From positions 1,054,001-1,118,000 of the forward strand of contig CM102287.1 in NCBI GenBank assembly GCA_046563655.1: a stretch of 64,000 bases of DNA. The letters are read 5' to 3'. This DNA comes from Yuukianura sp. NJ FZ-2021 (Eukaryota). The notes under the pieces were generated by a model. It was not told the DNA's origin. It searched no databases and saw only the letters and a program-made list of their open reading frames with translations. Of the stretch, positions 2,168 through 64,000 are shown piece after piece. A program made the position numbers and the translations under genes. Position 1 is the first letter of the stretch. Each line of letters begins with the position of its first letter.

Positions 2168-3843
2168 CTACTGGCGAAGCGCCGTCCGACGTTTGACCTT
2201 GTTGCGCTTGTGCGAAAGTCTGGCCCTGCGATTCTCTTTCTGGCGTCTTTCCTTGTTGGAATTGATAAGTGCCTTCCTGGCTTTCGGATTCGGGCAGGAT
2301 CGGTGCTCGTGTGATGTGTCGTGGCAAAGGAAGCATCTTCTGGTGCTGATTGGTGCATCGGGAAGTGGAATTTCTGGAAATATGTCCGGATCATCATCAT
2401 AGTTCACATGGATTTCAATGTCTGGTTCTGTAGTTTGCATGTCAACGTCAGGAGCTTGAATAGGCGATATGATTTTTGGTTCAGGAACAATCGGATGTAC
2501 AATTGGAGTTGGTTCGTCTGGTTCCGATGCTGGTTCTGGTTCTGGTTCAGGAGTTCGTTTCTGGTTTACTACCACGACTGTGCTTCTGACTGTAACGTTA
2601 AGGTCGGACCAACTATCTTCGCTTTCGTCGTCGGTGCTGACGTAAGATGGTGCTCTGGTTGGTGGTGGTGGAATGTTGGCGATGACGTGGTAAACTTGAG
2701 CGATGGCGTCACAGATTTGATTTTGAATTTCAAGTGAACATTTGAAAATCTTAACTACGTCTTTTGGACATGAAGGAGCCACTATGGCTAAAGTTCTCAT
2801 TTGATCAAATGTCATAACCCAATGTACTTGTTTGTCTAGAATTTTTGCCTGATTAAGTGCCCATTGGTACAATTTACTAAAAATACATTTCTGAATTTGA
2901 TTGAGTGCTTGTGCATGCTTGCCTAAAACTATTTCTACCGTTGTTTTGTCACACGCACGGTACAATTTTAAAGATTTCTCCATAGATGCGGGGAAAATTG
3001 GTAACTTTGATTCTAATTTATGTACAAAGTCTAGTTGAAGGTCGCTGCCACTCGCTGCGTCCTTCATTTTCTTAACACATTTGTTCCAAAGTAATAACAA
3101 ACAAAAACTATCGTACCAAGCATAGTTCAATAACTCTTGTGGTAAACGACTGAGCTTATCTCTCACTGTCCAATCTGCTGCCTGAGCATCCTTTGACACC
3201 TCTACATCAAGTAAATATTTACACATCGTGGAAAGTGAAGTAGCTTCAAATCTAGTGTCTACACCGAAAAATAACATATGATACAATTCTTGTAAGTCTA
3301 TTATAGGGAAAATGAATATGTCAAAGTCACGCTGCGTCATGAGTAAATCATTGTCGCTGCCAAGTAGAATTTTGACAATATTCGTGCATGAAAAATTTTT
3401 GGGAGATTCTCCTTAAGCCAATTGCAAATCGGGGGAACGTCTATAACGAAATCATGATCTTCTACTGAGATTTGAATAGTAGTGATGAAATCTTGGTAAC
3501 AATTAGTCTGATGAAACTCCATATCTACAAAAAGTAACTGTTTCTTAAGTAAAAACTCTAACATCTGCTCTGCATGGTAACTTGTCTTAATCCAGTGATG
3601 AGTTCTAAAATCTGGTACTTCTAATTCTCTAAATAATGGCAAATCTGGGTTCCAGTTTCTAATTTCTTTCTCAAAAGGGTGAACTCTTGAAATTTTAGGC
3701 TCTATAGCAAAATTTACACTCTGTCTCATCTTTAAAAATTCGGGATACAAATCTTGCGGTCTAGCTTCTACGGACTTCCATTTCAATTTAGCTTCTTTCT
3801 GTGCTAGTTTCCATTTCTGAGCCTGTCTCTGCTTGCTATTCAT
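2168..3843 (-). CDS. Rrp6/EXOSC10-like DEDDy 3'-5' exonuclease + HRDC + CCHC knuckle (one 1-bp frameshift at ~3384)
   Basis: Motifs are HPFEKEI; VDMEFH..YQDFITTIQIS (ExoI); NIVKILLGSDNDLLMTQRDF (ExoII, read across the frameshift); KDAQAADWTVR..LPQELLNYAWYDSFCLL (ExoIII); LYQWALNQAKILDKQVHWVM (HRDC-like); CFLCHDTSHEHRSC. Confidence 0.88.
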
Positions 3844-4065
3844 TTTGAGGGTACAGTCGCTGCCTGAATCGCTGCGTCTGTACTGTAAATAACCAAAAAT
3901 ACTAAAATTAGTTTAAATCATAATCTTAATTAAGTGCATTCTAGCCTAAGTTATTTTCAACTTAACCTAGTGATTTCAGCCTAACCTAAATTGATTTCAC
4001 TTAACCTAAGGCGCCAACTAACTAAATTCTTAATCTAACTTAACTAAGAGCTCTTCTAACCTAAC

Positions 4066-7000
4066 TTAAGTCCTAAATCCTGCTAATTGCCTGTAATTTA
4101 CTGGTTTTCTGTCTCTGAGTTGTCTTTTCTCTGGTTCTTCTGGAATTTTGGTTCGAACTGTCTCGGTATCTCTTGGAAAATATGGTTTTAAGTCACTGAC
4201 GTGTCTAACTCCTGCTGACTTTCTTTCTGGATAAGTACAAATTTGGAATGTAACTGGAGTGACTTGTTTGACAATAACATAAGGACCTATCCACTTTGGA
4301 GCTAATTTTTGAGCTATACCTTCGTCTTTGTTAGATTGTACTCTGTTTCTAGTCAAAACAAACTGATTTTCGTCAAACGAAACTTCTCTACGATTTTGAT
4401 CATAGTATTTCTTGTATGCAGCTTGAGCTTTGTCAATATTCGTTCTGACCCAACTAATTGGATTTTTTAAGTACTGATTTAATTCAATTGCATGAGACTC
4501 TGGTAACTCGAAATTTTCCTTTTCTGGCTCTGAAATTTGTCTGTCGAATGGCAAACTAATCTCACGACCTAAGTTTAACATTGCTGGTGTTACTTTAGTA
4601 CTTTCATTACAAACTGTTCTTAATGCAAGTGCGAATTTTTGGATATGTAAATCCCAACTCGAATGTTGACCGTCTACAAATGCACAAATCATTGCTTTAA
4701 TGTTTCTATTTATCCTTTCTGCTAAATTTGGCTGTGGATGGTAAACTGCGAAAAATCTATGGTCGATATTCCAATCTTTACAACACTTTTTCATTAAGTT
4801 AGACAAAAATTGAGATCCATTGTCTGTGATTATCGTTTTTGGACTTCCGTACCTGCAGAATACGTGATCCTCTAAACAATCTACAATCTTTTTAGCCGTT
4901 GCTTCTCTTAACGGGAACATTTCTGTCCACTTTGACAATTGATCGACTACAACTAACAAATACTCATTCCGTCTGCCTCCTGCACTAACCGGAAGTGGAC
5001 CAATTAAATCTGCGTAAATGACTGAGAAAACCTTTTTCGCTGCTCGAATTATACCCATAGTCCCTGCGGGTTTTAGATTATCATACTTGACTTCCTGACA
5101 AACTTTGCATGTTTTGACGTAATTTGCTATATCTTTGTTCATGTCTGGCCAATACACTCTGCTTTGAACTCTGAATTTTGTTTTTCTGACCCCTGGATGA
5201 CCTGAATGAGGTTCATCATGTAACTCTTTTAGAACCAAATTTCTGAGACTTTTAGGCACAACAGGTAAGTACAACTTAACTCTATCCTTAACACTATTCT
5301 TATCTCTAGGCTTAACACTAATCTTAACACTAACGCTAGCTTCTTCTTCTTCATCTGTACCTACTTTCTTTTCGGAACGAGGAGCATCTTCGCATCCCAC
5401 ATTGTTCCTTACGAACGGAGAGCTCTTCGGCGTCCCACACTGTTCTTTTAGACGCTCTTGGTCTTTAGGGCAATCTTCCCTTTTTGCTCTACCAGGCACT
5501 GCCGCTGGGAGTCTATCTAGGCCTTTCTCTTCGGTATTCTGTACAAAACAACTTTCGTTTGTAAAACCAATCTGTGGATCAACTCTGTCCACTTGTGGGG
5601 TCATGCTACCCACTTTGCGCTTCCGCAAACTTCTATTTTTCTTTGTGTGCACTATCCTAAACAGGATTCCATCTTTGATAACATAATTTTCTAAATTGCA
5701 TGATCTTTTAAACCCTTTCTGCGGTTTTTTAAGTTCTTCTTTTAACGTCAAAATTTCTACATCTGTCCTTTGTGCATCTTTTATGCTCTCTAAGGTAACT
5801 GAACTTCCAAAAATTGAAAAAATTTCTTGGGTCGCCGCCCCTCGCGTCGTCCCAAACGTAGGAATATCCATAATTTTCATCTCATCATCTAAATAACTTT
5901 GATCATCTTTGAGAGCTTTTACTGGAGCTCGTGATAGTGCATCTGCCACTATATTTTCTTTTCCTGGTCTATGCTTAATCTCTAAATCCTGATTCTGAAT
6001 TTGAGCGGACCATCTCATCAATTTTTTTGAATTGTTCTCCATGGTTTTCAACCATTGTAATGCTGAATTGTCCGTTTCTAAGTACACTTTCTGTCCAAAG
6101 ATGTACTCCCTAAACTTATTTAGTGCAAAAATAATAGCTAAACACTCTTTTTCTGACGTAAACAGCCTCTGTTCCGTCTCATTTAAGACCTTGCTTGCAA
6201 AATATACAGCTTTTTCTTTTCCATCTACTTTTTGAAACAGAACTGCGGAAATACCATAGTCTGAACTATCTGTGGTAATGTAAATTTTTTCCGAATAATC
6301 TATCCCGTGAAGTGTAACATCTTCACACATTCTCTTTTTCAAATTTTCAAAAGATTTCTGCTGCTCTGGTCCCCAAACAAACTTTACATCTTTTCTTAAC
6401 AATTTATACAAAGGTGCTGCGATCTCAGCGAATTTTTCTATGAACGAGGAATACCATAAACACATTCCATGAAATTTCTGAATTTGTCTCAATGTTTTTG
6501 GAGCTGGATAATTTACAATTGCTCTAATTTTTTCTGGCTGCTTCTTAATACCTTCTTTTGTAATCAAATGACCCAAAAAACTAGTCTGTCTCTTGAAGAA
6601 ATGACTTTTCTCTCTATTAATTGTGAGATTTGCTTCTGCTAACCTTCTAAAAATCAATTCTAAATGACGCTTGTGCTCTTCCAAAGTTTTACTGTAGACC
6701 AAAATATCATCCATGTAAATAGCAACAAATTTAAGACAAAAATCACTAAACACATTATTCATCAACGAAACAAAAGTAGCGGGTGAACCTTTCAACCCGA
6801 ATGGCATTACGTTCCATTCGTACAAATTTCCATCAGCGTAGAATGCTGTCAACTCTTTACTTTCTTCTTTAAGTGGAATTTGCCAAAATCCTGACTGCAT
6901 GTCAATAATGGAATAGTAACCTCCTGTAGGTATAGTTCTTAAATTTGACTTGCATTGTGCATTGGAATAACATAACCTTTAGTTTTTGCATTAATTCCCT

Positions 7001-7790
7001 TGTAATTGATCGTCATTCTCAATTTACCATTCTTTTTCATAGTCAAAACTGGATTTGCGCCGTATGGCGATTTAGAATGTCTAATTAGGCCTCTGTCCAA
7101 CAAATCTTTCACCTGATTTCTGATCTCTTGTCTAATGTTAGGCGGATAACCTCTAGGAACTTGTTTGACTGGAGTAAAATCCGTCAAAATGATTTCATGT
7201 TGAGCAAATGGAGTAATTCCGAATTCACCATTTGGTCTCACTACTGTAGGAAACTTTTCTGCCAATTGAGTAATAAAATGATCGTTTGAACTAATGGAAA
7301 GCAACATTGAATTTTTTAACTTCGTAACAAAACTGATTCGTCCACTCTGATCTTTGGTTGGATACTGCCGGTGCGCTGTATCATCAAACCAAAATGTTTT
7401 TTGTTTTAAATTAAGAACAATTCCTTCTTTTCGAATCAAATCCTTTCCAATTATACAAGAAATCGGTAATTTTTCCGTAATTTTAAACCTGTGTTTAATG
7501 AGTTTGTGGCCAAGTTGAAATTCTAAATCGATTTCACCAACTGTTTCTAACGTTTCTGTATTTGCGCATGTCAAATCTATGGAATCGAACGAAGACCATT
7601 CTCTGTTTAATTTATTAGCCAATTGCTTTGAAATTATAGACCAATCACTGCCTGTATCAATCAATGCTTCGAATTCTAACCTCTTCTGATTTGGAAAATA
7701 CTCTACTTCATTTTTGCCCTCGGAATTTTTGTAATTGAAAATTGGGAGTAAATGGGACTGGGCGGGTTCCTTCTCCCTTAATAGTTTAAA
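4066..7790 (-). CDS. pol: Pol polyprotein (protease, RT, RNase H, integrase); 1-bp frameshift at ~6940
   Basis: Motifs are LIDTGS; IDMQSGFWQI..MPFGL..YMDDIL; TDSSDYG..EKECLA..TDN; HDEPHSGH..CKVC; ADL..TDNGSQF..AERINR; PKWIGPY. Confidence 0.95.
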
Positions 7791-9136
7791 TAGTCTTGAC
7801 CAGAACGTGAATTTCGTGGTTGGTTGTATTGTGGGACGTCGCCTGTATACGCGTCGTCCCTAAATTTCTGACTTTCTCTTGGTTGCGACTGCTGAACGTT
7901 TGGTTGTCTCTGAGACGGTCCTGGTTCACGATACTGACTCTGACTTTCTTGTCTAGCCGGCGGAAAATTTTGAAAATTCTGTTGTTCTCCTTGAGTAATA
8001 ACACCTACTGTATTATTCTGAGGACATTCCCTGGCGAAATGACCAAAATCCTGGCAGGTGTAACATTGTAAGTCCTTTCGACTAACTCTGCGACCATTAT
8101 TAGAACTTGGATTTCGAAACTGCGGAACTTCTGGGTAACCTCGACCTCTAGGTGCACCTCTGCCTCGTGAATGTTGACCTCTATTATTTTGCGGAAAGTC
8201 TCTGTATCTGCCAAACTGAGCCTCAGCGCTACTAACTTGCTGATTCTGACCCTGGCCTTGCTGATTCTGAGGTTGTCTGAACCTTGGGTTATTGTAAGAA
8301 TTTGGGCCGGAATGACCTTGACCTCTACCATAATTGTTTGGACCTCTGTTTCCTTTATTTCCTCTGTAATTTGAATTCTGACCTCGATTATTCGTTTTCT
8401 GCTTGTTTTCCGTAGGAGTACTTGACTGACTTTTGTTAAAATCGCTTTCAACTGGGATTGTTCTAACTGGAGGAAGCTTTGTAACCTCATTTTTGCGTCT
8501 ATCCTCTGCTTTAATATCGTAGATGACCCTCTTTGCCTCGTTAATTAGATCAGCTGGAGTCCAACTCTGGCTATAACCTACCAAACATCTGATTTGTGGA
8601 TACAAAGCATCACGACATCTCTTAACAATTCGAAACATTTCCTCTTTCGGATTGACCTGGTGGCTCAAAGTAACCATTTCCCAAACGAAACTTTCAACTG
8701 ATTCTGTAACCTTTTGTTTCCTAGTCAACAATAATTTAGCCCTGAATTCCTTTTCTTCAATAGTATCATACTTTGCGATGAAACTCTTTTTGAATTGTGA
8801 CCACGACTTAATGTCATCTCGTACATTGTCATACCAAGCTTTTGTCTCTTTAGTCATGATAGTTCGAATCAGATACAAATATTTGTCCTTTGTGTAATTC
8901 TGGCTTTGAAAATAAGACTCAACATCTAACAAATAAGAAGCTGCAGTTCTCTTCCTATAATCATAAACTGGAACTGGAATGTTTGGATTAACCCCTGTGA
9001 TCGTGTAATGAACTTTTGGCAATTTGCTAGAAACTTTTTTCTTTCCTTGCACTACCTCACTTTCATCTGAATCTGAATTGTTCAATCTAGAAGCGTCGCT
9101 GGGATGCGCGTCACCTCTTCTACTCCTAGTCTCTCT
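7778..9136 (-). CDS. gag: Gag (N-terminally truncated) with CCHC knuckle
   Basis: AWY..SWSQFKKSF..RKQKVTESVESF, a Q/N/G-rich linker and CYTCQDFGHFAREC. The frame stays open upstream to the polB junction. Confidence 0.9.
   Translation of the reverse strand, partial: RETRSRRGDAHPSDASRLNNSDSDESEVVQGKKKVSSKLPKVHYTITGVNPNIPVPVYDYRKRTAASYLLDVESYFQSQNYTKDKYLYLIRTIMTKETKAWYDNVRDDIKSWSQFKKSFIAKYDTIEEKEFRAKLLLTRKQKVTESVESFVWEMVTLSHQVNPKEEMFRIVKRCRDALYPQIRCLVGYSQSWTPADLINEAKRVIYDIKAEDRRKNEVTKLPPVRTIPVESDFNKSQSSTPTENKQKTNNRGQNSNYRGNKGNRGPNNYGRGQGHSGPNSYNNPRFRQPQNQQGQGQNQQVSSAEAQFGRYRDFPQNNRGQHSRGRGAPRGRGYPEVPQFRNPSSNNGRRVSRKDLQCYTCQDFGHFARECPQNNTVGVITQGEQQNFQNFPPARQESQSQYREPGPSQRQPNVQQSQPRESQKFRDDAYTGDVPQYNQPRNSRSGQDYLNY
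7784..7790 (-). promoter_or_regulatory. -1 ribosomal frameshift heptamer T TTA AAC (gag-pol)
   Basis: Sits at the gag end (YLNY*). The -1 frame reads FKLLREKEP...EALIDTGS without a stop. Confidence 0.8.
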
Positions 9137-9724
9137 GAAAAGTTTGTGTGTCGTTTTTGTATGTGTTTTTCAAAAAGCGAAAAGAAATTGCAAAATCACC
9201 AAAAGTTTTGTGCGGCGTTGGACATACAACGCGTCGTTTTACCAACCGAAAAATACTTCACGTCAAAATTCATCGTGCAACGTCTTCCTGTGCCGTATGT
9301 CATATACTTAGACTTTGAAGCACTGTTAGTACCTACAGACGGGATTGGTACTCGACAATCTGGTGCCGTTTATAATGAACATTTAGACTGTGGGTGGTCA
9401 ATGAGTATCATTGGGCCGGACGGTTATCTGGCGGACCGTGTTGTGACATTTTGTGGTCCGAATGCTGCACTGAGGTTGGTCGACGAGCTCGTGTCTGTTG
9501 CCGGAAAGATATATCCAATTTTGAAAGAAGATGTAGGCCTCGACCCACGATGGACAGAATCTGACTATGCTCACCTTTTGCTGGCTTCAACTCACTGTAT
9601 TCATTGTGGACTGGAGTTTGTGGAAGGGGTTGACACTAAGTGCATTGACCACTGCCATGTTACATCAACCATTCGTGGAGTGAGTTGCGGTCCTTGTAAC
9701 CTGAACGCCCAAGTTTGTTCATTC

Positions 9725-10105
9725 TGTTACGAAGTTAACAATGCAAAAAATTATGGTAATTGTTTTCTGTCTTTTGTCTTTGCAAATCCTAGTTTTTGCA
9801 CATGTAATCCAGTTAGAACTAGTTCTCTAAGTTAAAAATAGATTTCTAACCGTTAGTCTTTTGTTTTGTGCACAATGTAGTTGACATTAGATCTGCATGT
9901 AATTAACTCGGCGCGTGTCGAGTCCCTATAAAAAGGGCTCGGCCGTGACCTCAAGAATCATTCCTTTTCCAATTCTAAAACTTACCAGAACTCTGTCCGT
10001 TCTGCGAACGGACCAGAGGTCAACAACCTAACTTTCTGAAAATAAAAGTTACTCTTCTCTGCAATTTGCGAGTCTCCTAGCAGTAAACGATCATTTTTCA
10101 GAACA
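9725..10105 (+). repeat. 5' LTR of element 2
   Basis: Direct repeat of 12685-13065, containing TATAAAA and AATAAA. Confidence 0.93.
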
Positions 10106-10339
10106 ATGGTGGACGAGATATCGATGACCTCGTGCCCCACCTCAACAAATGCTTTCACAAAACCCACCGGGTCCGCTTCGGCGTCGACCACGGGTTTTGA
10201 CCTTATGGCGGTGGTCCGTTCGAAGAACGTTGACCTGTTGACCCTGAGGTGGGATGCTAAATTAGCATCAGGTGCTTGGGACAGCAAAACGCTGATCCCA
10301 AAGCTTCATCTAGTGATGGAGGGAAAAGCACTGAAGTGC

Positions 10340-10766
10340 TGACCTAAGGTCACGAACTAAAGCACAAGCGAAAGCCGGTGATATTAGTTACTTTAAACTA
10401 AATTAGTCAAATACTTAAAATTTCAAATTAAACATTGACCCATGTGAGGTCAAAGGTCAAATATGACCCCAAAACAAAATTAATTACGCTGACACCTTCA
10501 AGGTCACGTAAGGTCAAATAAATAACGATTTATTTTTACAAAAAAAACATGTTGACCTTGAAAAGGTCAAATTAACAACAGAATTTATTTCACCCCTATG
10601 AGGTCACATATGACAAAATTTTGAAAACTCACTTTGACCTTGAAAAGGTCAAATCGCAAAAATTGACGAAATTTTGACCCAAATGAGGTCAAACTCAAAA
10701 TTTATGTCAAACTAAGGAGGAGAGGGTAGCCAATGCTTTCAGCATTGTGTTGACCCCGATTGACCT
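10340..10766. promoter_or_regulatory. Cluster of RGGTCA/TGACCY nuclear-receptor-type half-sites
   Basis: About 16 half-sites counted in ~430 bp, including four everted pairs with 5-bp spacers. Function is unproven. Confidence 0.5.
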
Positions 10767-11591
10767 CCATACAAAAATTCGAGTTTGTAAAAACTCAAAA
10801 CACAACAAAACAACAACGGACTTTTAAAAATCAAGTTTAGTTCAAATTCTGAGGTGAAATTCAAATCACCTGTAAATAAGCAAATGACCTAAAACTCCAA
10901 ACTCCATTTGAGGACTCAAAATGCAGGGTCCAAAATAATATGGAGGAACATAAAGGATTGCTAATTTACCTTACTAAACCCAGACAATTTATTAAAAATT
11001 ATACAACTGGTATTAAATTACCTCTGAAATTTGTCAATAACAATTGAATTAAGCCCATTTTCACAAATACACGTCAAAAACAAAATTATTAAATTTGACC
11101 TCTGAGATTTGCTGAAAATTGCGGGAAAATTCAAAGGTTATTGCAAATTCAAGTAATAATTGCCAACAAAATTACCTCTGAGTTTTGCCAAAAGCTGAGG
11201 AAAATAAACCTCAGTTACGCAATTCCAAGTAATGTAACTAAAAATAAAAATTACCTCTGAGACTTTTAAATTTGAGATAACGTTGCCTCAAATGTAAAGT
11301 ACACGTAATTTATCAAAATTATTATCACATTGCATCTGATAGTTTAAATCAACACCAAAATCATGATTCGATGATGCGCCGCCATAGAGTTTGCTCAAAA
11401 GGTGAGGAAAACCTCAACCGAGCAAATTCAAACTCAAAAACAGTCGGCGAAAAGCAAAAATTAAACTGTAGAGTAACTTGGTGTGTGCCATTGTCATTTT
11501 GCGAAAAATAAACTTGTTTTAAACAAAAAGTTGCAAAATTAATTAAAACTGCGCGAAATCGGCTAAGTCCGCCGATTCGTCTCACCCCTCA

Positions 11592-12056
11592 GTGTTTACT
11601 GATGTAAACAAAAAGAATCAGCATAAGCAAATTTTCAGTAGAGAATCCAACTCTACAGGTAGTAATCAAATTAGGCAATTTAGTGCAAATTCAAACAAGA
11701 AAAGTTCAAGTCACGACATTAGTTCCAGTTATCGGTCATTGACTGGACATTCTGGACATTCAAAGTCACGTAGGAGCACTCCTCGTGCAAAAACACAAAG
11801 TGACAGTGACAGTGACAGTGCCGATGACCCCAAGGCTATAAAAGAGCCTGAGGATGACGAAGCAGTTGTCACTCCAGTTTCATCTTCATCATCTGAAGAA
11901 GAAGACCCGTCTCTTCTTGCTCCTGCCAACCCAAAGGTCAACGACACAGCCACTCCAAGGAGAACTGGACGTACAAGGAAACCACCAGACCGTTATGGAG
12001 AGTGGACCTACTACAATGGACGTAGACGCAGAAGATGTTCATCTTCGTCAAATTGA
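11592..12056 (+). pseudogene. Remnant of pol C-terminal tail
   Basis: Acidic/Ser-rich stretch leading to PRRTGRTRKPPDRYG, typical of LTR pol termini. Confidence 0.5.
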
Positions 12057-12673
12057 CGAAGAAGTCTCACGTAAGGCGACTTTTGACCTTTACAGGTCAC
12101 TTAAGTTCACGTCCTCACTCTCCATTCCATTCCCCAATTTCTACTTTTATTGTTCATTTCATCTCTAATATATTTTTCTTTTATTTTTTAGGTCAGATGA
12201 GGGAACTCCATATGACACAATCTGCCCCGTCTCCAACCATCTCTACATCATCAACTACTTCAGGATCCTCCACGGTACCGTTACTACTCAATGTCAACCC
12301 ACCGGACGGAAGGACCGATTTTTCAAAGTGGAAAATCCCCAAGAAGAAGAAGGCTCCTACCAATCCGGCTCCTACTAATCCGAATCCTCAACCAATCGCC
12401 ATTCGCCGCCACGATCGACGACGACACGACTTCCCGAGGATGAGCACTGCATTGCCCCCTCAAATCACGCAAGGTCAACCGAGGTCATCAGGGCGTCCTA
12501 TCGTCGTCCTCTCCGATCCGCGTGACCTACGAGCCACTCTCCGTTCAATGACCCCGGAATACCCACAGCGACATCGACCGAAACTTTGCTTCATCTGTAA
12601 CGACTACGGACACAAACAAAAGTCATGCCCTCTACGCCCCATTTCACGGAATTCAGGAGAATTCGAAGCCTAA
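12016..12673 (+). CDS. Spliced 3' ORF of element 2 with C-terminal CCHC zinc knuckle (exons 12016-12070, 12192-12673)
   Basis: GTAAGG donor at 12071 and TTTTTAG acceptor at 12191 keep the frame (EEVSR-QMRELH). Contains CFICNDYGHKQKSC and stops at the PPT. Confidence 0.6.
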
Positions 12674-12684
12674 GGAGGAAGTAA

Positions 12685-13065
12685 TGTTACGAAGTTAACA
12701 ATGCAAAAAATTATGGTAATTGTTTTCTGTCTTTTGTCTTTGCAAATCCTAGTTTTTGCACATGTAATCCAGTTAGAACTAGTTCTCTAAGTTAAAAATA
12801 GATTTCTAACCGTTAGTCTTTTGTTTTGTGCACAATGTAGTTTACATTAGATCTGCATGTAATTAACTCGGCGCGTGTCGAGTCCCTATAAAAAGGGCTC
12901 GGCCGTGACCTCAAGAATCATTCCTTTTCCAATTCTAAAACTTACCAGAACTCTGTCCGTTCTGCGAACGGACCAGAGGTCAACAACCTAACTTTCTGAA
13001 AATAAAAGTTACTCTTCTCTGCAATTTGCGAGTCTCCTAGCAGTAAACGATCATTTTTCAGAACA
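12685..13065 (+). repeat. 3' LTR of element 2
   Basis: Direct repeat of 9725-10105. Confidence 0.93.
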
Positions 13066-13904
13066 ATTCATTCCAGTTGTTTGTCATGGTTTTCGACACT
13101 ATGATTCGAAATTTATTGTACAAGCGTTGCGTGCTAGTACAATTAAATCTGTGGAAGTTTTGGCGAGCAGCAGCACCGAGAAGTTTACTGCTCTTCGGTT
13201 GACAACCCATGGAGATCATGTTCTGCGAATGATTGATTCGTATCAGTTTATTAGTGCGAGCTTAGCAGAGCAAGTCAAAATGCTTGCCAAAGAAGGAAAA
13301 GACAAATTTGGTGTGACTTGTCATCATTTTCAACAGTACGGAAGTAAAATTGAATTACTTTTAAGAAAAGGGGTTTACCCTTACAGTTACTTTGACTCCA
13401 TGGAGCGTTTTGATGAAACGTGTTTGCCACCTGCCGAAAAATGGAAAAGCGATTTGACTGGAAAATCCATCAGTCCTGAAGATTTGGAACATGCGCATAC
13501 GGTTTGGCGGGAATTTGGCTGTCAAACATTGAGAGATTATCACAACTTGTACGTTTCTCTTGATGTTTGCCTCCTGGCGGATTGTTTCCAGAATATGAGA
13601 AGAAGTATGCTCGAGAGTTTCCGCCTGGATCCTGCTCACTACCTCACTCTTCCAGGAATAGCATACGACGCAGCAATGTTTGCAGGAAAAGTGGAGTACG
13701 AGTATCTGGATGAGATTGACAAGTACATGTATTTTGAACGCGGGATTCGGGGTGGAATTTGTTCTGTCGGACTACGTTATGCAAAAGCGAACAACCCTTA
13801 CTTGGGGAATTTATATGACCCCACGCTTCCATTGAGTTACATTTGCTACTGGGATGCAAACGCCTTGTACGCAACTTGTTTGAGGAACTACGTACCTTGG
13901 AAAT

Positions 13905-14275
13905 TGTAACGCCCTACGACGCTAAACAACTGAAAAACACTCCACCAGACTACTCCGCTGAGTCTGCAGACTCCAGATCCAAATGACCCCTGACCAATCA
14001 CCAGAACACACAACACATCGACGGATAAATATAAATGTATATTTATTAAGTCGATGAAATAAATACACTGAAAAACAACTGCTAAATACTAAACATGACT
14101 GGAGATCTCTGATCTCCACAAAACCCAATCAACCACTGACTCTATATACAAAACTCATCTCTCTCTCTCTCCTCGCCACATCTCAAAACTCCCGCGACTC
14201 CACTCGCCGCATCTCTGCCAAATCTCAATAAGATAGAATCTTATGGCTACTAAGCCTACGCAGCAGACGCCAACA
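13905..14275 (-). repeat. 3' LTR of element 3
   Basis: TGTAACG...CCAACA, repeat of 16817-17187. Confidence 0.93.
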
Positions 14276-19219: not shown

Positions 19220-19225
19220 CATACC

Positions 19226-54640: not shown

Positions 54641-54974
54641 AAAAAAGTTAGGTTCGTACTCTATTTAAACTCTTCGCATAATCAAGCATTCTTCTCTCAC
54701 GGATGCCTCAACTTGTTGCTCTCTGCTCTTTAAGTCACTGCCTCATTCCACCTTCTCCAGAATGGTGGAAATGGAACAGTGACTCAAAGAACAGAGAGCA
54801 ACAAGTTGAGGCATCCGTGAGAGAAGAATGCTTGATTATGCGAAGAGTTTAAATAGAGTACGAACCTAACTTTTTTTTAATTTTTTTTATTACTGCTCCT
54901 GGGAATCGACCCCAGGCTTCCTCGATTTGATTCCATCACCCTATCGTTTGCGCTAATGCACTTACCATTGTTTA
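54641..54974 (-). ncRNA. Candidate Pol III transcript: tRNA-like head + 236-nt hairpin + T6 terminator
   Basis: Inverted repeat at 54641-54876. T-arm/B-box-like CCTGGG-GTCGATT-CCCAGG at 54898-54916 and a weak A-box at ~54965-54974. The hairpin is certain, but transcription is inferred. Confidence 0.45.
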
Positions 54975-55198
54975 ATTCAAAGTGAATTTGATATATACTC
55001 TGAAATAATCAAAATTTTATTATAAAACAAGGGTTTAAACATAAACGTTTTTAACATTAGAAACTGTTTATATCTTAAAAGCTCAGCTTAAATTCCTTTC
55101 CGGTTAGTCAATTGTGCACTTAATAGTCATATTAATCATAGCTCCAAATTTAGCTCTCAGTTATCTTTCTTAAGTCAAACTGAAAACATCTATCTACA

Positions 55199-55693
55199 AT
55201 GCGGCAGAGGTACGTGTTTAATCACGAACATTACTACAACACTTTGAGTGACCAAATTGGCAATGGAATGCCTGTGTTTCATGGGGTACGTCAAAGAGGG
55301 GGTGGGATTGGTTCCATCCTAGGCGGGATTGCCAAGTACGCATTGCCAATCATCATGAAGTGGATTTTGCCTCGCGCAAAGGAAGCTGCAGTTAAAACTG
55401 TGAGTGGCATTGCGGGAGGACGCCAGTCGGTAAAGAAGGCTTTGAAAGAAAACAGCGTTGGATTTTTGAAGAACGTCGGCTCGGATCTTTTGAATTCAGT
55501 AGTAGGAAGTCAAACCGGAAACGGTGTTCGAAATAAACAGAAGCGGACGTACACGAAGAGGAAACCCGCGAAACTAAGGAAGCAAGTTTCGGCAAACAAG
55601 GTTAAGAAATCCAAATCGAAAGTCTCAAAAAAACGAAAAGCGAAACCAAATCCAACAAAGACGAAGAGAACCAAATTAGATATTTTTGCATAA
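55199..55693 (+). CDS. Basic core/membrane-active virion protein with QxGxG motifs
   Basis: QIGNG, RQRGGGIGSILG, SQTGNG, Lys-rich tail ending DIFA. Confidence 0.87.
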   Translation: MRQRYVFNHEHYYNTLSDQIGNGMPVFHGVRQRGGGIGSILGGIAKYALPIIMKWILPRAKEAAVKTVSGIAGGRQSVKKALKENSVGFLKNVGSDLLNSVVGSQTGNGVRNKQKRTYTKRKPAKLRKQVSANKVKKSKSKVSKKRKAKPNPTKTKRTKLDIFA

Positions 55694-57021
55694 TGTCTTT
55701 GCTGCATTCCCGGTCTAAACCGGCCATTCGTGGAGAAGTCGACCTATTTTCAATCCCAGCAACAGATACGACGTGTGACTACAGTATGTACGAAGAGTAT
55801 CAGCCAGTTGTGAACGTTCAGGACGCTTCAAACAAAATCGAATTTAAGATTCCTGGGAATAGTAACCATTACCTGGATTTGGCAGACAGCTTCCTGCGGA
55901 TCAAGGTAAAAGTGACGCAGAAGACCGGAGATAACCTAGGAACGGATTCCACAGTTGGAACTGTGAATTTATTTATGCATGCCCTCTTCTCACAACTGGA
56001 CATTTATTTTAATGAAAAACTTGTGTCCACAAGCAATAATGGCTACTCATATCGGGCGTACATAGAAACATTGCTTTGCTACGGAAAAGACTACAAAACC
56101 TCGCAGGGTGGATGTGCTTTGTACTATGAAGACACAGTTGGTGGAATTGCAGACTCGACAAACCTAGGATGGGAGAAACGAAAAAGCTACATCAACGAAT
56201 CGAAAGACTTGGAACTAATCGACAAATTGAGATTTAACCTAGCTAATCAACATCGATACATATTGAATGACGTGAACGTTCGCATTTGTCTCACACGATC
56301 TTCCGATGCATTTGCCCTTTTTTCAAAAAAGAAGGGTGAGGATGGAGTAATCAAGTTCTTATCGGCAACATACTACATCCGAAAACAACTGCCATTTCCT
56401 AGCATTATATTGGCTCATCAGAGACTTTTAGAAAAGGGTGAAATTGCTCAATACCCATTTAAGTCCACTGAAGTGAAATACTTTACCATTGCTCAAGGAA
56501 ATTCGTCTGCCCTCGAAGAAAACCTTTTTGCAAATACTGTGCCAAGTCGTATTATAATTGGATTTGTGGATAGCTTGGCGTTCAACGGAGATTTCAATTC
56601 AAATCCGTTTCGTTTCCACAATTACAACATTAAGTCCATTTCGATTTCAGTCAACAATGTGTCTATACCAATTAGGCCGTTGTCCTTGGACTTTCCAAAT
56701 AACGAATGTCTTTTGGCATACTATCTTTTATTTACGAGCACAGGAATAGCTGGGCACGATGTTGGACTGTCTTTTGGGCGAGATGACTACAAAGAGAGCA
56801 ATGCCCTATTTACATTTGATATTCTTCAACCCACTGGGAACGAGGCACTCCTTCATTTGGAAAAATCTGGGAGCGTGAAAATTGAAGTTCAGTTTGGCAG
56901 GGCGCTAGAAAAATCAGTGCACTGTGTTATTCTGTCTGAACAACAAGGGGTTTTGGAGATTGACAAGTACCGACTGTTGTGGCACAATGAATACCACCGA
57001 AATCATGGAGATACTGGATAG
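55693..57021 (+). CDS. Major capsid protein
   Basis: EVDLFSIP, YLDL, NLFMHALFSQ, YSYRAYIETLL.YG, NPF.FH. The last ~15 aa may reflect a 1-bp deletion (restored IDKYRTVVAQ* would overlap the protease ATG). Confidence 0.93.
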   Translation: MSLLHSRSKPAIRGEVDLFSIPATDTTCDYSMYEEYQPVVNVQDASNKIEFKIPGNSNHYLDLADSFLRIKVKVTQKTGDNLGTDSTVGTVNLFMHALFSQLDIYFNEKLVSTSNNGYSYRAYIETLLCYGKDYKTSQGGCALYYEDTVGGIADSTNLGWEKRKSYINESKDLELIDKLRFNLANQHRYILNDVNVRICLTRSSDAFALFSKKKGEDGVIKFLSATYYIRKQLPFPSIILAHQRLLEKGEIAQYPFKSTEVKYFTIAQGNSSALEENLFANTVPSRIIIGFVDSLAFNGDFNSNPFRFHNYNIKSISISVNNVSIPIRPLSLDFPNNECLLAYYLLFTSTGIAGHDVGLSFGRDDYKESNALFTFDILQPTGNEALLHLEKSGSVKIEVQFGRALEKSVHCVILSEQQGVLEIDKYRLLWHNEYHRNHGDTG

Positions 57022-57538
57022 GAACATCAACGGATCATACCAAACTGCAGTTCTACCGTCCGACAAATTAAACGTTATTACTTCGGATCAGTTCGCAGTT
57101 GTAGCAAATTCCCAAACTTCCAAGGAACCAGGAATGCATTGGATCGGCATGTTCAAAAAACGAGGAGGTAGGGAAGTAGAATTCTTCGACAGCTGTGCAA
57201 TGCCGATTCACTTTTACAATCCTAGCTTTGTCGATTTTCTTTACTCCAAATCCGACGTCATAAGGATGAGCAGCCTTAGAGTTCAGCCGGAGCATAGCGA
57301 TGCTTGTGGACAGTTCGCGCTATACTACTTGATACACAGAGTCAAGGGAGAATCATTCGAAAAAATCCTGAGTAGGTTCGACGAATTTGATCTAAATGTA
57401 AACGACAACATTGTTAGAGACTTCGCAGCAATTAACTTACATTACGATAATACATGCTTCAGGGGTGACTCCCAAAACTTAGAAGTAACCAGAATCATTC
57501 AGTGTTGTGAGATTTTAGAAGTTCTACTCAACATGTAA
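56987..57538 (+). CDS. Adenain-like cysteine protease
   Basis: MNTTEI, PGMHWIG, EFFDS, VQ..SDACGQF, ND. Catalytic His, Asp and Cys are present. Confidence 0.9.
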   Translation: MNTTEIMEILDRNINGSYQTAVLPSDKLNVITSDQFAVVANSQTSKEPGMHWIGMFKKRGGREVEFFDSCAMPIHFYNPSFVDFLYSKSDVIRMSSLRVQPEHSDACGQFALYYLIHRVKGESFEKILSRFDEFDLNVNDNIVRDFAAINLHYDNTCFRGDSQNLEVTRIIQCCEILEVLLNM

Positions 57539-57605
57539 GTTTCGGTTCCTACAAGTGTATATATTTAACGTGACCAAATTGTACATTCATTCTAATCTTA
57601 TTAAA

Positions 57606-58535
57606 ATGAAATCTCAAGTTGCGAAAGCATACAAGAACATCGGAAGTTCTACTTATTTGGGGGGCAAGAAACATTTAAGTAAGTTAAACGGTATTTCTGA
57701 TTCTACAGCATTGAAATTCTTACAAACTCAAGACTCATACACGCGCCATAAGAGTCGGAGGTGCAAATTTCGCAGGAGACGGGTAACATCACCAGGTATA
57801 AACTACCTATGGCAGGCTGATATTGTTTTTTTGCCAAAATACACTGAAGAAAACGATGGCTATTCTTGTCTTTTAACCGCAATTGATGTCCTGTCAAAGT
57901 ATGCATTTGCTGTGCCAATGAAATCAAAGAAAACTAGCGAAGTTATTCAAGCATTTAAGCGGATCATCTCTTCAGGGAAAGGAAAACCTGTAACACTAGA
58001 ATGCGATCAAGGTTTAGAATTTTGGTCAGCTACATTCCAGAAGTGGGCAAAGTCTCTTGGCATATTGATGTACCATAACTTTTCAGACTTTGGTTCATCC
58101 GTTATTGAACGGTTTAACCGAACAATATGCACAGCTATCTCAAGACATCTTACTGAAAGTGGTCAAGCGAGATACATTGAAGCCCTGCCTTTTCTTATAA
58201 AGACTTATAACAGCAAAATACATTCGCGAACAAAAGTGGCGCCATGCGACGTTAACAAATACAATGAAATGGACGTATGGTTGGAATCTTATAAGGACTT
58301 GTATTCAAAACCTAAATCAAGGGCTACTCTTAAACTGTACGACCGCGTTCGCCTAGATAAAACGAAACACATATTTGGCAAAGGTTATTGGCCTGCTTTT
58401 ACGAGCGAAATTTTCGAAGTTTGTGAAGTCATCAATTCCATTCCTGTGACGTATCGTGTCAGGGATCTCTCTGGTGAGCAAATTTCTGGCATCTATTACA
58501 GTCAAGACCTCAGCAAGATAAGTTTAAAAGTGTAA
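57606..58535 (+). CDS. int: Retroviral-like DDE integrase of Polinton B
   Basis: WQAD, IDVLSKYA, CDQGLEF, IERFNRT, F.KGY..FT.EIF. Confidence 0.93.
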   Translation: MKSQVAKAYKNIGSSTYLGGKKHLSKLNGISDSTALKFLQTQDSYTRHKSRRCKFRRRRVTSPGINYLWQADIVFLPKYTEENDGYSCLLTAIDVLSKYAFAVPMKSKKTSEVIQAFKRIISSGKGKPVTLECDQGLEFWSATFQKWAKSLGILMYHNFSDFGSSVIERFNRTICTAISRHLTESGQARYIEALPFLIKTYNSKIHSRTKVAPCDVNKYNEMDVWLESYKDLYSKPKSRATLKLYDRVRLDKTKHIFGKGYWPAFTSEIFEVCEVINSIPVTYRVRDLSGEQISGIYYSQDLSKISLKV

Positions 58536-58536
58536 A

Positions 58537-59283
58537 ATGGGATTCTATATTACATTACCGTCGAACGGCTCACGTTATTTTTCTGACAATCGAACCAGTA
58601 ACTACAGGATTAAACTTCCATCCAAAATAAAACTTGAGCCTTCCTTATACGAAGTCGGGCTTACTGAGTTGACTTATGTGTGCTCCATAAAAACCCTAAC
58701 CGGAGCTGAGAAAGACAACCTCATTGAGTATAATGCTGCGAAGACTGCCGGGACAATAGAGCTTCCTTTACTTCATTACAGTACCGTGGAGCATTTAGTT
58801 CACATAATCAACGCAGCTTTTATAAAGCACAGCGTCCCTTCCAACTTGAAGTACTATGAAACAAAGTGTCGTGTTATCCTGGAAGTAGAAGCTGGATTTA
58901 GTATCGAAATAAGTGAGAAACTCTCCTACATTTTGGGATTTAATGGTACGCTTGAATTTAATTCAAATCAGCAAAATACTTACTTCATAGCCGATTCTCC
59001 ACCGGATATACTCGGTGGGCGATATCACATGTTTCTATACTGTGACATAATAGAGTCTCAAATCGTTGGATCCTCTCTTGTGCCTCTGCTTCGTATGGTA
59101 AACATAATTGGAAACGAAGGACAAGCAGTCACTCAAACTTTTGCTCATCCGTTTTATCTGCCGATTTCAAGGAGCGAGTTTGACATCATCTCTATTGTAC
59201 TGTGTGACGAATTTGGGGGGGAATTGCAAATTGACAATGGTCAAGTGACTTTAACTCTACATTTTAAGACGATATCAACCTAA
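58537..59283 (+). CDS. Minor capsid protein (penton)
   Basis: FYITLPSN, YEVGLTEL, MFLYCDII..QIVG..PLLR, HPFY, LTLHFK. Confidence 0.9.
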   Translation: MGFYITLPSNGSRYFSDNRTSNYRIKLPSKIKLEPSLYEVGLTELTYVCSIKTLTGAEKDNLIEYNAAKTAGTIELPLLHYSTVEHLVHIINAAFIKHSVPSNLKYYETKCRVILEVEAGFSIEISEKLSYILGFNGTLEFNSNQQNTYFIADSPPDILGGRYHMFLYCDIIESQIVGSSLVPLLRMVNIIGNEGQAVTQTFAHPFYLPISRSEFDIISIVLCDEFGGELQIDNGQVTLTLHFKTIST

Positions 59284-59387
59284 TGGAGAACCATACGTAC
59301 GATTTCGATCAAATTCAACTCAAACATCCATTCACATTTATTGTTGCAGGCGGTACGATGTCTGGAAAAACAACATTTGTTTGCAAG
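59283..59387 (+). pseudogene. Packaging ATPase, 5' fragment interrupted by an LTR
   Basis: LKHPFTFIVAGGTMSGKTTFV (Walker A), followed by LTR sequence. Confidence 0.85.
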
Positions 59388-60032
59388 TGTTACGTCTCAG
59401 ATTGGCGTAATGCCATTGGAAGGGCCCTCGGGGTTAGTACTCGCTTAGCCCAAGGGGTCAAGGGTCTTAAGGACCCCTTCCTGGCTGAGTTCGTCCAATG
59501 TTTTGTCCATGTTTGTGTAAGGTGAAATAAAATGATCAAGTATGAATATATTTGCCCATACCTTCTGCTGTGACTGTGCTTTTATTTTCTTCCGGGTAGT
59601 AGTAGGTTAGTGGGTACTTAGTAGTGCTTTTTCTCCTTCCTTCTCTAGTCTTCTGTGCTTTCTCGCTTACTTCCAAGCTATTACTGAATAGTATTTATAT
59701 TAGTGTTTTAATTGCCCAATTAAGGTTGCTAGGTGGGTGCTAATTAGTGCTACTTAGGAGCTAATTAACAACTTTTGTTTTATGCACTAGCGTACGGCTG
59801 TGGTCGTGCTTCCTGCCACTTGGCCCTGTGATCGCTTGGCCTTGTGGTTTCTTTCCACTCCGACTGAGACTGGATTTGGTGCTAAGTGGGCTTAGTTACT
59901 AGGTGTGCTTAGTAACTAACTAACTAACGTTACACGTGCGACCTTGTGCAGTAGTGCCTAGCAACTGACTTGTGAAAGTGAAAGTTCAAGTGCAGGTGCT
60001 GAAGGTATTGTTGTGCAAGTGCAGGTGTAACA
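59388..60032 (-). repeat. 3' LTR of element 4 (~645 bp)
   Basis: TGTTAC...GTAACA inverted termini. Minus-strand purine tract AAAAAGATTAGGCAGTGGAAAG precedes it. Confidence 0.75.
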
Positions 60033-60088
60033 CTTTCCACTGCCTAATCTTTTTGTCGTCCCGACAAAGCAATATCGGAGGTGATGAC

Positions 60089-61339
60089 TCATTCTTGTCT
60101 TGGTTGTCGCCGTTCGAGCTCCAGAAGCCTCTCCTGCATGTCCCGGATCTGGCGTACTAAGTCGGGGATGAGGACATCGGGCGGTGGTAAGTCGCCAAGG
60201 GTGAGGTGTCGTTGACTTGCGGTGGGGTATGGCGACATTCGTCGGCTGGGTATATGAGTGGTGGTTTCTGCGGCTCGTCGGCTCGGCGAGCGTATCCCTT
60301 CCAAGAATTCGGGGCCGAACCAGACAAGTAATTGGGGAATGAGTTGGGACGCTCGGCCTTCGTCCATTCCGGGTGGTTTGGGTAACGTGGTAATCCGTCG
60401 GGACAGTCCTCTGATGAACTCGAGATTGGTACCGGTCTTCCATCGTGCGTAGTCGGCAACGAAGAGTTGAGTGGGAACGTCCAAGACTCGAGCGACATAA
60501 ATGATACTAGCGCGAATTCGTGCATCTCGACGGTCGACTGGTAGGGTATTCGAAAAGAAGTGGATTAGTCGAAACGGCTCTGCGGTTTGTTCATGGGTGG
60601 TCTCCAGCATGCCTTGTAAGAGTGCTGGGATGTCAATTGATCCAATTGCGTAGCCGTCCTGTAGGTACACGGTAATATCTTTCCACAGTTGAGCGATTGT
60701 TTCGGTGTGATCGACCATGCGAGGGTCATCTTGTTGCAGGCGGTGTTGGGGAAATCCTGCCGGTATGGTTACCGTGGACTGGAAGTAGCTTCTCAGGGTT
60801 CGTGGCGCTGCTTGGTCTGACAAACCGAGTATGTGGCTGCGGATAGTCTCCACGTCCAAGACACTGCGTGGAATGACTCCGAAATCTCGTTCAATCCACT
60901 GTTGTTGCTCCTTGCCATTGTAGCAAATCTTCATTATCCGCGGTGATGCAAACAGAGTTTTTAGCGGGCCGTGCGTGTCTTCATCTCTGGGGTCCATGAT
61001 AAATGTTTTGTTCTTGGAGACAATGACCAAACGGCAGATCGCTCCGATGTATGAGTGCGGCCATTCGAAACAGGAAAAGACAACTGGGGAGAGTTCGATT
61101 GCCTTTGAGACATGTGCCGTAACTTCTTCTTTCGTCTTCAAGACCGTGTAGTTAGATGGAGGTAGGAGCCATCCTGGCGTCCAAAGTGAATCGTGCATAC
61201 GAGCTTCGTCGATGTCCAACACTTCCATCCGGTCTGGGCGTATCATTCGTGCTCCGTCAGTGAGGTTGCGCACTTGTGTTTGCGCGTACTTGAGTTGTGG
61301 GAGGTTCCGTGTGACTGAAGGTGCGATGTCGAATTCCAT
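60089..61339 (-). CDS. Rrp6/RNase D-fold protein, predicted catalytically inactive
   Basis: HSYIGAICRLVIVS..TFIMD, LKTLFASPRIMKICYNG..WIERDFGV..VLDV, and HRDC-like VARVLDVP. The acidic ExoI/II residues are replaced. Confidence 0.72.
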   Translation of the reverse strand: MEFDIAPSVTRNLPQLKYAQTQVRNLTDGARMIRPDRMEVLDIDEARMHDSLWTPGWLLPPSNYTVLKTKEEVTAHVSKAIELSPVVFSCFEWPHSYIGAICRLVIVSKNKTFIMDPRDEDTHGPLKTLFASPRIMKICYNGKEQQQWIERDFGVIPRSVLDVETIRSHILGLSDQAAPRTLRSYFQSTVTIPAGFPQHRLQQDDPRMVDHTETIAQLWKDITVYLQDGYAIGSIDIPALLQGMLETTHEQTAEPFRLIHFFSNTLPVDRRDARIRASIIYVARVLDVPTQLFVADYARWKTGTNLEFIRGLSRRITTLPKPPGMDEGRASQLIPQLLVWFGPEFLEGIRSPSRRAAETTTHIPSRRMSPYPTASQRHLTLGDLPPPDVLIPDLVRQIRDMQERLLELERRQPRQE

Positions 61340-63999: not shown

Positions 64000-64000
64000 T

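Follow-up and report, generated by a model that had tools for sequence, protein, structure and literature searches.

Rrp6-like accessory genes, one of active type and one predicted to be catalytically dead, in two LTR retroelements of a 64,000-nt window from Yuukianura sp. NJ FZ-2021

The window analysed here is a stretch of 64,000 nt of Yuukianura sp. NJ FZ-2021 (GenBank assembly GCA_046563655.1, contig CM102287.1, positions 1,054,001 to 1,118,000), for which a first-pass annotation had proposed a recurrent system of accessory genes in long terminal repeat (LTR) retroelements. Two open reading frames (ORFs) related to the exonuclease Rrp6/EXOSC10 were found in it, within retroelements designated element 1 and element 4. 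Both are very probably genuine accessory genes of these retroelements, placed in ORF3 position and derived from the Rrp6/EXOSC10 core without its docking parts. In element 1 the ORF comes after pol and in element 4 after env, and in both it stands directly before the polypurine tract (PPT). As judged from alignments, the core comprises the linker, the DEDDy exonuclease (EXO) domain and HRDC, without PMC2NT and the C-terminal exosome-binding region. A six-frame scan with Rrp6-type profiles, covering 610 ORF segments (minimum length 30 aa, satellite array of the window excluded), gave two matches only, at 2171-3412/3340-3912 and at 60092-61372, both on the minus strand; no other segment of the window came below E 0.3. 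The proposal of two Rrp6-like cargos within 60 kb was borne out, as these two ORFs were the sole profile matches and matched PF01612 as well as Rrp6 and EXOSC10 entries of the PDB. The observation is real and is not a product of chance; the interpretation attached to it went too far in three respects, namely element 2, function and novelty.

Element 1 (minus strand, 2168-9169) is a decayed, 5'-truncated Ty3/gypsy copy with frame breaks in pol. The order of gag, protease, reverse transcriptase (RT), ribonuclease H (RNase H) and integrase matches the Ty3/gypsy families of Pfam. The gag part with its CCHC knuckle (7778..9169; Retrotrans_gag E 3e-5, zf-CCHC E 2.4e-6) has no start codon and meets the start of a Maverick polB ORF at ~9104, and the copy is therefore considered truncated at the 5' end. 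The aspartic protease together with the RT N-terminus (6939..7859; Pfam RVP / gag-asp_proteas) is read in a frame different from those of both neighbours, and is followed by the RT-RNaseH-integrase part of Ty3/gypsy type at 4066..6978 (RVT_1 3.4e-33, RT_RNaseH 2.5e-30, Integrase_H2C2 1.9e-23, rve 5e-14, SH3_Tf2-1 4.8e-7). An AT-rich spacer of 222 nt separates the pol stop (4066) from the start of ORF3 (3843). A single frame break at ~3340-3412 divides ORF3 into an N part (3337..3843), which begins with the ATG at 3843 (MNSKQRQAQKW...) and contains an RPQD..PEF motif, the linker HPFEKEI and Exo I (FVDMEF), and a C part in another frame (2168..3412) with Exo II, Exo III, an HRDC-like region, a knuckle and a basic tail. 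Both parts match PF01612 (N part E 8.7e-7, C part E 5.2e-10). The N part aligns with yeast Rrp6 over the linker and Exo I at E 2.6e-6 (HPFEKEI/HPYEYEI and FVDMEF/AVDLEH, respectively), and the C part with human EXOSC10 (3saf) over Exo II and Exo III and on into HRDC sequence at E 1.5e-12 (GSDNDL/GADSDI and YAWYD/YARDD). All five DEDDy residues are kept, i.e., D-x-E in FVDMEF, D in GSDNDL and Y-x3-D in YAWYD. HRDC is seen in the 3saf alignment and was not called by Pfam at E 0.01, and PMC2NT had no Pfam match in the N part. After a low-complexity linker there is a CX2CX4HX4C knuckle at 2294-2335, and then the basic tail. The description of this gene as an active-type exonuclease with a CCHC knuckle was accordingly correct, with the frame break as an addition.

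Two hidden Markov models (HMMs) were used for sorting such proteins, one of transposable element (TE) type built from 28 sequences and one of cellular type built from 40. The N part of the element 1 protein scored 115 bits with the TE-type model vs. 48 bits with the cellular one, and the C part 151 vs. 106 bits. At its 3' end the ORF3 stop (2168-2170) overlaps AGAGGGGG, the first of the purine tracts at 2146..2169 on the minus strand (AGAGGGGG ... AGGAGGA); a second purine run follows and then TGTGACG from 2145. These tracts together with TGTGACG are read as a putative PPT and the start of the 3' LTR, the far end of which is undelimited. Short ORFs on the plus strand at 1341-1971, with a C2H2 zinc finger match at E 2e-4, overlap the expected end of this LTR.

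Element 4, likewise on the minus strand, spans from 59388 to beyond 64000, the window edge. Its order is pol tail stop (63763), env, Rrp6-like ORF, PPT-like tract and LTR. Only a 78-aa tail of pol is visible (63763..64000), the rest lying beyond base 64000; the frame is open from outside the window and ends with ...YVTRAGREIRKPARYC. No Pfam family matched the 78 aa, and we infer from its place that this is the tail of pol. The env-like gene of 757 aa (61456..63729) matches Baculo_F at E 7.4e-7 (28.6 bits, cut-off 24.1), and its product is hydrophobic at the N-terminus and in C-terminal stretches, and has an RTKR site. The Rrp6-like ORF of 416 aa follows at 60089..61339, with an ATG at 61339, a stop codon at 60089-60091 and an intact frame. 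It matches PF01612 at E 2.1e-5 (24.8 bits, cut-off 23.6) and RRP6 of T. brucei at E 1.1e-4, and in the six-frame scan it scored 34.5 bits with the TE-type HMM (E 3.2e-10). In this ORF the D and E of Exo I are replaced by S and F and the D of Exo II by Q, and the Y-x3-D of Exo III is unrecognisable in alignments. The protein is therefore predicted to be a catalytically dead exonuclease fold, as the first-pass annotation had it. An AlphaFold2 (AF2) model, made with an alignment of 34 database relatives, reached a pLDDT of 69, with 72-91 at residues 60-260. When this model was compared by Foldseek, the catalytic cores of Rrp6 ranked first (2hbj, E 2.7e-11), and the Rrp6 matches comprised 322-382 aligned columns over EXO and the helical HRDC-like part at a TM of ~0.5. 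A purine-rich PPT-like tract at 60033-60062 is followed by the 3' LTR of 645 bp, running from 60032 to 59388 (TGTTAC...GTAACA). Contigs of the sequencing runs X2, X3 and X4 track the Maverick sequence up to 59387 and then continue into other sequence, i.e., they represent the empty site. This fixes the end of element 4 and shows its insertion into a Maverick ATPase gene.

Relatives of the element 1 protein were sought by phmmer with the C part against 1.84 billion representatives, which gave 481 matches at E<=1e-3, 12 at E<=1e-10 and none at E<=1e-30. The best full-length matches were proteins of 500-600 aa laid out as the element 1 ORF3, with an RPQD..P.F motif near the start, then the linker, EXO and HRDC, and finally an acidic stretch that varies and a basic tail. 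The RPQD..P.F motif may be the counterpart of KPQ..F, which follows PMC2NT in the cellular proteins P0010 and P0024. Protein P0002 shares both the knuckle and a tail motif CP.P..RKALINSN with the element 1 protein, and the knuckle was also present in three further clusters (P0109, P0121 and P0138). In a Pfam scan PMC2NT was found in none of the 27 short-clade proteins vs. all eight long proteins of cellular type, and HRDC was called in 18 of the 27. A FastTree phylogeny of 142 rows and 213 columns, from Exo II to HRDC, separated 36 rows including the element 1 protein from the other 106 with a support of 99. The 71 rows with 640 aa or more all fell outside this set, and every row tagged by the N-motif, the NRG tail or the knuckle fell inside it. 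The element 1 protein paired with P0002 (support 97). A quick IQ-TREE phylogeny was made from 58 rows, comprising the 27 short proteins, the window protein, 28 of the 71 long rows taken at random and two bacterial RNase D as root. Here the short rows and the window protein formed a clade, sister to the 28 cellular rows, and in both trees the element 1 protein falls outside the cellular Rrp6 clade. The HMMs sorted the remaining material in the same direction: 15 of the 18 shorter or partial matches left outside the tree scored higher with the TE-type model, among them all four tested rows of the three knuckle-bearing clusters, and three with the cellular one. The HMM alignment contains 28 rows of the clade, of which 26 extend over the five catalytic columns; 25 of these read D-E-D-Y-D, and the last one has Q at Exo II. 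The proposed split into enzyme and pseudo-enzyme forms agrees with these residues, kept in element 1 and the 25 clade members and replaced in element 4.

All clade members with a named source came from the springtail Orchesella dallaii (P0006, P0007, P0086 and P0162), giving at least four in one genome, and two of them, P0086 and P0162, are almost the same protein, encoded on different O. dallaii contigs. The source of the other members was a Logan or metagenome assembly, with contigs 1-8 kb in length. Several homologues end with ...GG(M/V)C(D/N)A, and the element 1 locus has ...GGAGGA directly followed by TGTGACG; such tails would be expected if translation ran on through a G-rich PPT into an LTR beginning with TGT, and are taken as indirect support for a similar location of these genes. 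Metagenome contigs, queried with an alignment or with P0005, and viral contigs gave no relatives, and a word-indexed protein search with the element 1 C part found nothing. Fused pol-exonuclease proteins did not turn up in the word-indexed search either, which is weak evidence. Look-alikes of both ORFs in the atlas scored below 0.9 and were considered as leads only.

The copy state of element 4 was followed in the sequencing runs by placing contigs of at least 85% likeness on 58500-64000; word depths are given as sums over contigs and are not copy numbers. From one sample of organism A, 168 (X1), 223 (X2) and 50 (X3) contigs were placed, and 11 from organism B (X4), and they were spread over all identity classes. 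The X4 contigs covered no more than the Maverick sequence and small pieces of element 4. X4 also contains a fraction of 0.36 of the sampled words of the element 1 ORF3 region, a figure to which no weight is given. No RNA run was among those listed. The runs of the organism contain multiple copies of the element 4 family. Among the pieces listed the Rrp6-like ORF differs by ~4-8% and is free of gaps within 60092-61339, and the indels listed, at 60072, 60075, 61383 and 61448, are each outside ORFs. In one contig of X1 (depth 11) position 60068 is linked directly to 61348; the 1279 nt skipped are the pseudo-exonuclease ORF with flanks of 9 and 21 nt. X1 thus contains a relative, ~14% diverged in env, in which this ORF is either missing or replaced, and this is a hint that the element 4 ORF behaves as a cassette. 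A 45-nt stretch at 60024-60068, covering the PPT and the start of the LTR, was common to many otherwise unlike contigs, including those of organism B, and suggests a PPT/att end conserved over several LTR families.

A third accessory gene had been placed in the same module, namely a spliced CCHC protein in element 2. This element (9725..13067, plus strand) is a non-autonomous LTR element of 3.3 kb within the polB gene of Maverick A, with LTRs at 9725-10107 and 12685-13067 of 383 bp and 99.7% identity, a target site duplication (TSD) ATTC and a primer binding site (PBS) starting with TGG. Its CCHC ORF is found at 12197..12673 (ATG 12197, stop 12671-12673, knuckle 12587-12628), and the stop codon overlaps the PPT AAGGAGGAAG (12672-12681), 11 nt from the LTR at 12685. 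A GT-AG interval at 12071-12191 would link two frames in phase and is a candidate intron, so that the splice reading is coherent and possible. The upstream ORF ends with ...PRRTGRTRKPPDRYGEW, much as the pol frames terminate in elements 1 and 4, and the knuckle ORF therefore probably sits behind a remnant of pol. Compared with the exonuclease tail, only the 15-aa knuckle matched (E 2e-4), and the knuckle of the element 1 gag matched equally well (E 3e-4). The element 2 ORF was for this reason rejected as a relative of the exonuclease tail. It shares position and knuckle with the exonuclease genes; a link by ancestry is unsupported.

With element 2 taken out of the exonuclease-related module, the claim that the accessory ORFs stand before the PPT still stood for all three, as each ends at or just before a purine tract that is followed by a TG-starting LTR. 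That they belong to three LTR families with unrelated LTRs held in part. Element 2 has an LTR pair and element 4 a delimited LTR end; element 1 is 5'-truncated and has no LTR pair. Only two LTR pairs were detected in the window by self-BLAST (satellite masked) and repeat search, and neither belonged to element 1 or element 4. The LTRs can be called unrelated in the sense that no cross-match occurred in self-BLAST at E 1e-10, which means no more than that.

We propose that the element-1 type would act as an exosome-independent, free-standing 3'-to-5' exonuclease. Its C-terminal knuckle, similar to that of nucleocapsid (NC), or its basic tail, would tether the nuclease to single-stranded nucleic acid in the ribonucleoprotein of the element, where it could trim the 3' ends of RNA or single-stranded cDNA during replication. 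The ORF3 product would probably be made from a spliced subgenomic RNA, like env genes. An acceptor-like pyrimidine tract with AG no more than 50 nt upstream of the ATG was seen in elements 4 and 2, i.e., in two of the three ORFs, against a background of 55 of 1187 ATGs (4.6%), the criterion being post hoc. Element 1 has a weaker pyrimidine tract, ...TTATTTACAG, ~40 nt upstream of the ORF3 ATG. In the element-4 type catalysis would have been lost with fold and frame kept, leaving a module for binding of nucleic acid or a partner, like the dead DEDD proteins of hosts; the dead copy stays in frame across diverged contigs, which suggests that binding without catalysis can be of use. The evidence shows homology, the states of the residues, position, the structure of the clade and the multi-copy state of element 4; substrate, tethering, splicing and any benefit to the element we infer. 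The explanation favoured here is, as a whole, given a slightly better than even chance. Its mechanism as a whole, a tethered exosome-independent nuclease in element 1 and a binding module in element 4, is put forward tentatively and could well need replacement.

Several points weigh against these conclusions. Element 1 is a dead copy, truncated at the 5' end, without an LTR pair and with frame breaks in both pol and ORF3, and no intact autonomous element with an ORF3 was seen in the window. The variant tally of element 4 covers only a subset of positions, those listed. Its AF2 model was made with an Rrp6-like alignment and leans towards the Rrp6 fold, and the model made from the single sequence was unusable (pLDDT 37). 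In the IQ-TREE phylogeny the SH-aLRT supports of 89 for the short clade and 90 for the cellular sister clade are under the star level of the tool, only 28 of the 71 long rows were included, and few of the taxa are named. The retroelement linkage of the 36-row clade rests on the window, the copies of one springtail and the tail signature proposed above, and the clade could include host paralogues. Finally, the proteins of elements 1 and 4 did not match each other significantly in direct BLASTP (best E 0.27, at Exo II), and element 4 favours the TE-type HMM by just 7 bits (34.5 vs. 27.2); since this preference is so small, the element 4 ORF may have been captured independently from a host Rrp6. 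At the level of profiles, hhalign of element 4 with the element-1-type alignment gave a probability of 91% (E 1.1e-6, 165 columns), and the fold matches lead to Rrp6 structures. Judged in this way both proteins are Rrp6-type EXO domains, related at the level of family and fold. The relatedness assumed in the first-pass annotation stands by profile and fold and was not seen in direct BLASTP. Its notion of a widespread module stands in so far as the genes are not confined to two loci (36 of 142 rows in the clade, at least four springtail members, many diverged contigs), and is weakened by a linkage that is partly indirect.

The least probable of the alternatives that we considered denies any function in the element, and regards the ORFs as fragments of host Rrp6 that were transduced or happen to lie beside retroelement debris. 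The region is indeed a transposon graveyard of nested insertions, element 1 is decayed and pol of element 4 is outside the window. Such an origin is very improbable, as there are two independent cases with the same position and orientation that end at the PPT, and just two of 610 segments match the profile. Moreover, the protein of element 1 falls into a separate clade, marked by particular N- and C-terminal motifs and the absence of PMC2NT, and the element 4 ORF is intact and occurs in many diverged contigs, with no indels among those listed. A role in DNA-end processing is also quite improbable. The nuclease would here clear mismatched or non-templated nucleotides from cDNA 3' ends before integration, in a WRN-like or proofreading manner. 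DEDDy domains are described to cut single-stranded DNA as well as RNA in the available sections of PMC5408684, the knuckle and basic tail would bind either of them alike, and the exonuclease domains of WRN and family-A polymerases were among the fold matches of element 4. The nearest relatives in sequence and fold are nevertheless the RNA enzymes Rrp6 and RNase D, with the HRDC region in addition, and proofreading would not readily explain why element 4 keeps a dead form.

Counter-defence, as the first-pass annotation had suggested, is a possible role and on balance an unlikely one. The active enzyme would degrade or trim host small RNAs (piRNA or siRNA and their precursors) or surveillance RNAs that target the element, and the dead form would sequester RNAs or a host factor. 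A need for activity would fit the catalytic residues kept in 25 of the 26 clade members. Host proteins with the DEDD fold work in small-RNA pathways, the dead ones by binding RNA, and the element 4 model matched Nibbler (E 1.4e-6), EXD1 (7.2e-5) and Egalitarian (7.2e-7) in Foldseek. A silencing-related role is entertained also for the accessory ORFs of rotifer retroelements, as far as PMC5408684 was accessible, and in the accessible part of PMC7968707 the exonuclease ExoN of arenaviruses is reported to help in suppression of innate immune signalling. On the other hand, the presence of the rotifer ORFs was not clearly linked to copy number or silencing in the accessible text of PMC5408684. A simple decoy for the host exosome is unlikely, because PMC2NT and the C-terminal region are missing and there would be no competition for docking. 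A broader and rather improbable idea, a long shot, would make the Rrp6-core nucleases one old retroelement-specific pool that is shared by unrelated LTR families of invertebrates, perhaps including Juno, Vesta and Athena of rotifers, and that travels as a cassette before the PPT. Its members would have turned repeatedly into dead RNA-binding adaptors of the Egalitarian/EXD1 kind, helping elements to escape germline small-RNA or nuclear RNA surveillance, or to steer RNA.

Exonuclease genes of this kind have been described before. Rodriguez, Kenefick and Arkhipova (2017; PMC5408684, cited here and below from the sections available) reported RNase D-like DEDDy ORF3s, acquired at least twice, in the bdelloid LTR families Juno and Vesta. 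Such ORFs are also reported from the Athena/Terminon elements of rotifers (PMC5408684; for Terminon, the accessible part of PMC6431247). The rotifer ORF3s are described as closer to one another than to cellular Rrp6, WRN and mut-7, and their function is given there as unknown. In an opinion paper from 2019, the accessory domains already known from LTR elements include the DnaQ-like exonuclease, in the part available (PMC6338049). The kind as such is therefore already known, since DEDDy ORF3s in LTR retrotransposons were published in 2017, and the novelty claimed for the module was overrated, because these genes occur in unrelated LTR lineages of bdelloid rotifers. Reports of such ORFs outside rotifers were not found in a search that left subscription journals and Repbase largely outside. 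What appears to be new is the architecture of an Rrp6 core with a knuckle or basic tail, the clade that such proteins form by themselves in public data, springtail members included, and also, as read from the residues, the dead derivative that follows env in another family with multiple copies.

Like Juno, Vesta and Athena, the elements of the window have an extra ORF after pol with homology to the RNase D/Rrp6-type DEDDy proteins, in unrelated LTR lineages of one genome, and as in Juno and Vesta it is a separate ORF downstream of pol and within the element, element 1 being without an LTR pair in the window. Compared with Juno and Vesta, the catalytic residues are intact in element 1 and lost in element 4 (S, F, Q). 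The nearest named relatives came from a springtail, the rotifer proteins being compared by description only; the catalytic motif is DEDD here, whereas DEED is reported for rotifers in the available sections of PMC5408684. The present architecture is Rrp6 linker, EXO, HRDC and CCHC or basic tail, and the dead copy is placed after an env gene. The likeness to cellular Rrp6/EXOSC10 consists of the DEDDy EXO domain, HRDC, the linker (HPFEKEI vs. HPYEYEI) and the best PDB matches. Unlike them, the element-type proteins lack PMC2NT and the C-terminal exosome-binding region, are 330-600 aa long instead of ~700-1200, form a separate sister clade, and are encoded by multi-copy genes inside a retroelement. 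Env of the baculovirus F type is linked to errantivirus-like, insect-type LTR retroelements, and element 4 resembles these in having an env of Baculo_F type between pol and the 3' LTR. It differs in the extra 416-aa ORF between env and PPT. With EXD1, Egalitarian and Maelstrom the element 4 protein seems to share a kept fold with lost catalytic residues, and by analogy with known members that bind RNA it may do the same. Those are host genes, and the likeness, at fold level only, comes from a model leaning on an Rrp6 alignment. Maelstrom and EXD1 are described as inactive DEDD derivatives in the available sections of PMC5408684.

A little-known class of retrotransposon accessory genes now reaches beyond bdelloid rotifers. 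Its architecture can be defined as an Rrp6 core minus the exosome-docking parts, plus an NC-like tail, with an own clade among public proteins. The enzyme/pseudo-enzyme pair in one genome gives a handle on how a retroelement profits from a 3'-5' exonuclease of its own. There is also a practical side, since annotators label such ORFs as 'ribonuclease D', 'RRP6' or 'HRDC domain-containing protein', and counts of host genes can be inflated in this way.

The window consists of repeat-rich animal DNA, with nested mobile elements on both flanks of a satellite array. The Pfam scan comprised 26 ORFs of at least 150 aa and was complemented by translations and tblastx. Together these revealed two Maverick/Polinton-like DNA elements, both on the plus strand, and the further "elements" of the first-pass annotation turned out to be these Mavericks. 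Maverick A extends from 9077 to ~25,000. Three pieces of a protein-primed polB come first (9077-9835, 12992-13909 and 17149-18507), and behind them are ORFs resembling those of ATPase, penton, capsid and protease. Its polB gene is split by the insertions of two LTR elements. Maverick B (~55,184-59,387) contains capsid-, protease-, rve integrase- and penton-like ORFs and a truncated ATPase ORF, the gene being cut by element 4 after the Walker A motif. The capsid, protease and penton-like ORFs are common to both Mavericks at 25-43% identity (tblastx). Neither the polB pieces nor the rve ORF at 57519-58535 could be kept as parts of LTR elements: the former belong to the two Maverick/Polinton-like elements, and the latter is inside Maverick B according to Pfam and tblastx and therefore is not the integrase of an LTR element.

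The second LTR element within the polB gene of Maverick A, a third element of the non-autonomous kind, has LTRs at 13905-14275 and 16817-17187 of 371 bp and 100% identity, in minus orientation, with the TSD AAAT and a TGG-starting PBS. Its two ORFs of 218 and 572 aa matched none of the Pfam families; the longer one contains tandem repeats of 96-102 nt and continues through the PPT into the 3' LTR. The N-terminal polB ORF of Maverick A (9077-9835, plus strand) has a match to Endonuclease_7, the recombination endonuclease VII, at E 1.5e-6 through a Cys/His-rich stretch, and a 24-nt tandem repeat of at least eight units lies at 21356-21619 between two ORFs of the same Maverick. The satellite array at 26064-54600 (~28.5 kb) is built from a 161-bp unit in ~175 copies, which are mostly 93-100% alike, with some near 60-80%, and shows a steady strong GC skew of -0.28 at a GC content of 35%. 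At its edge there is an inverted repeat (54641-54876) with arms of 107 nt, 95% complementary, and 22 nt between them. Near the start of the window, an open frame at 356-1078 on the plus strand contains the closing part of a BIR domain together with a C3HC4 RING finger, and resembles an exon of an IAP-type gene.

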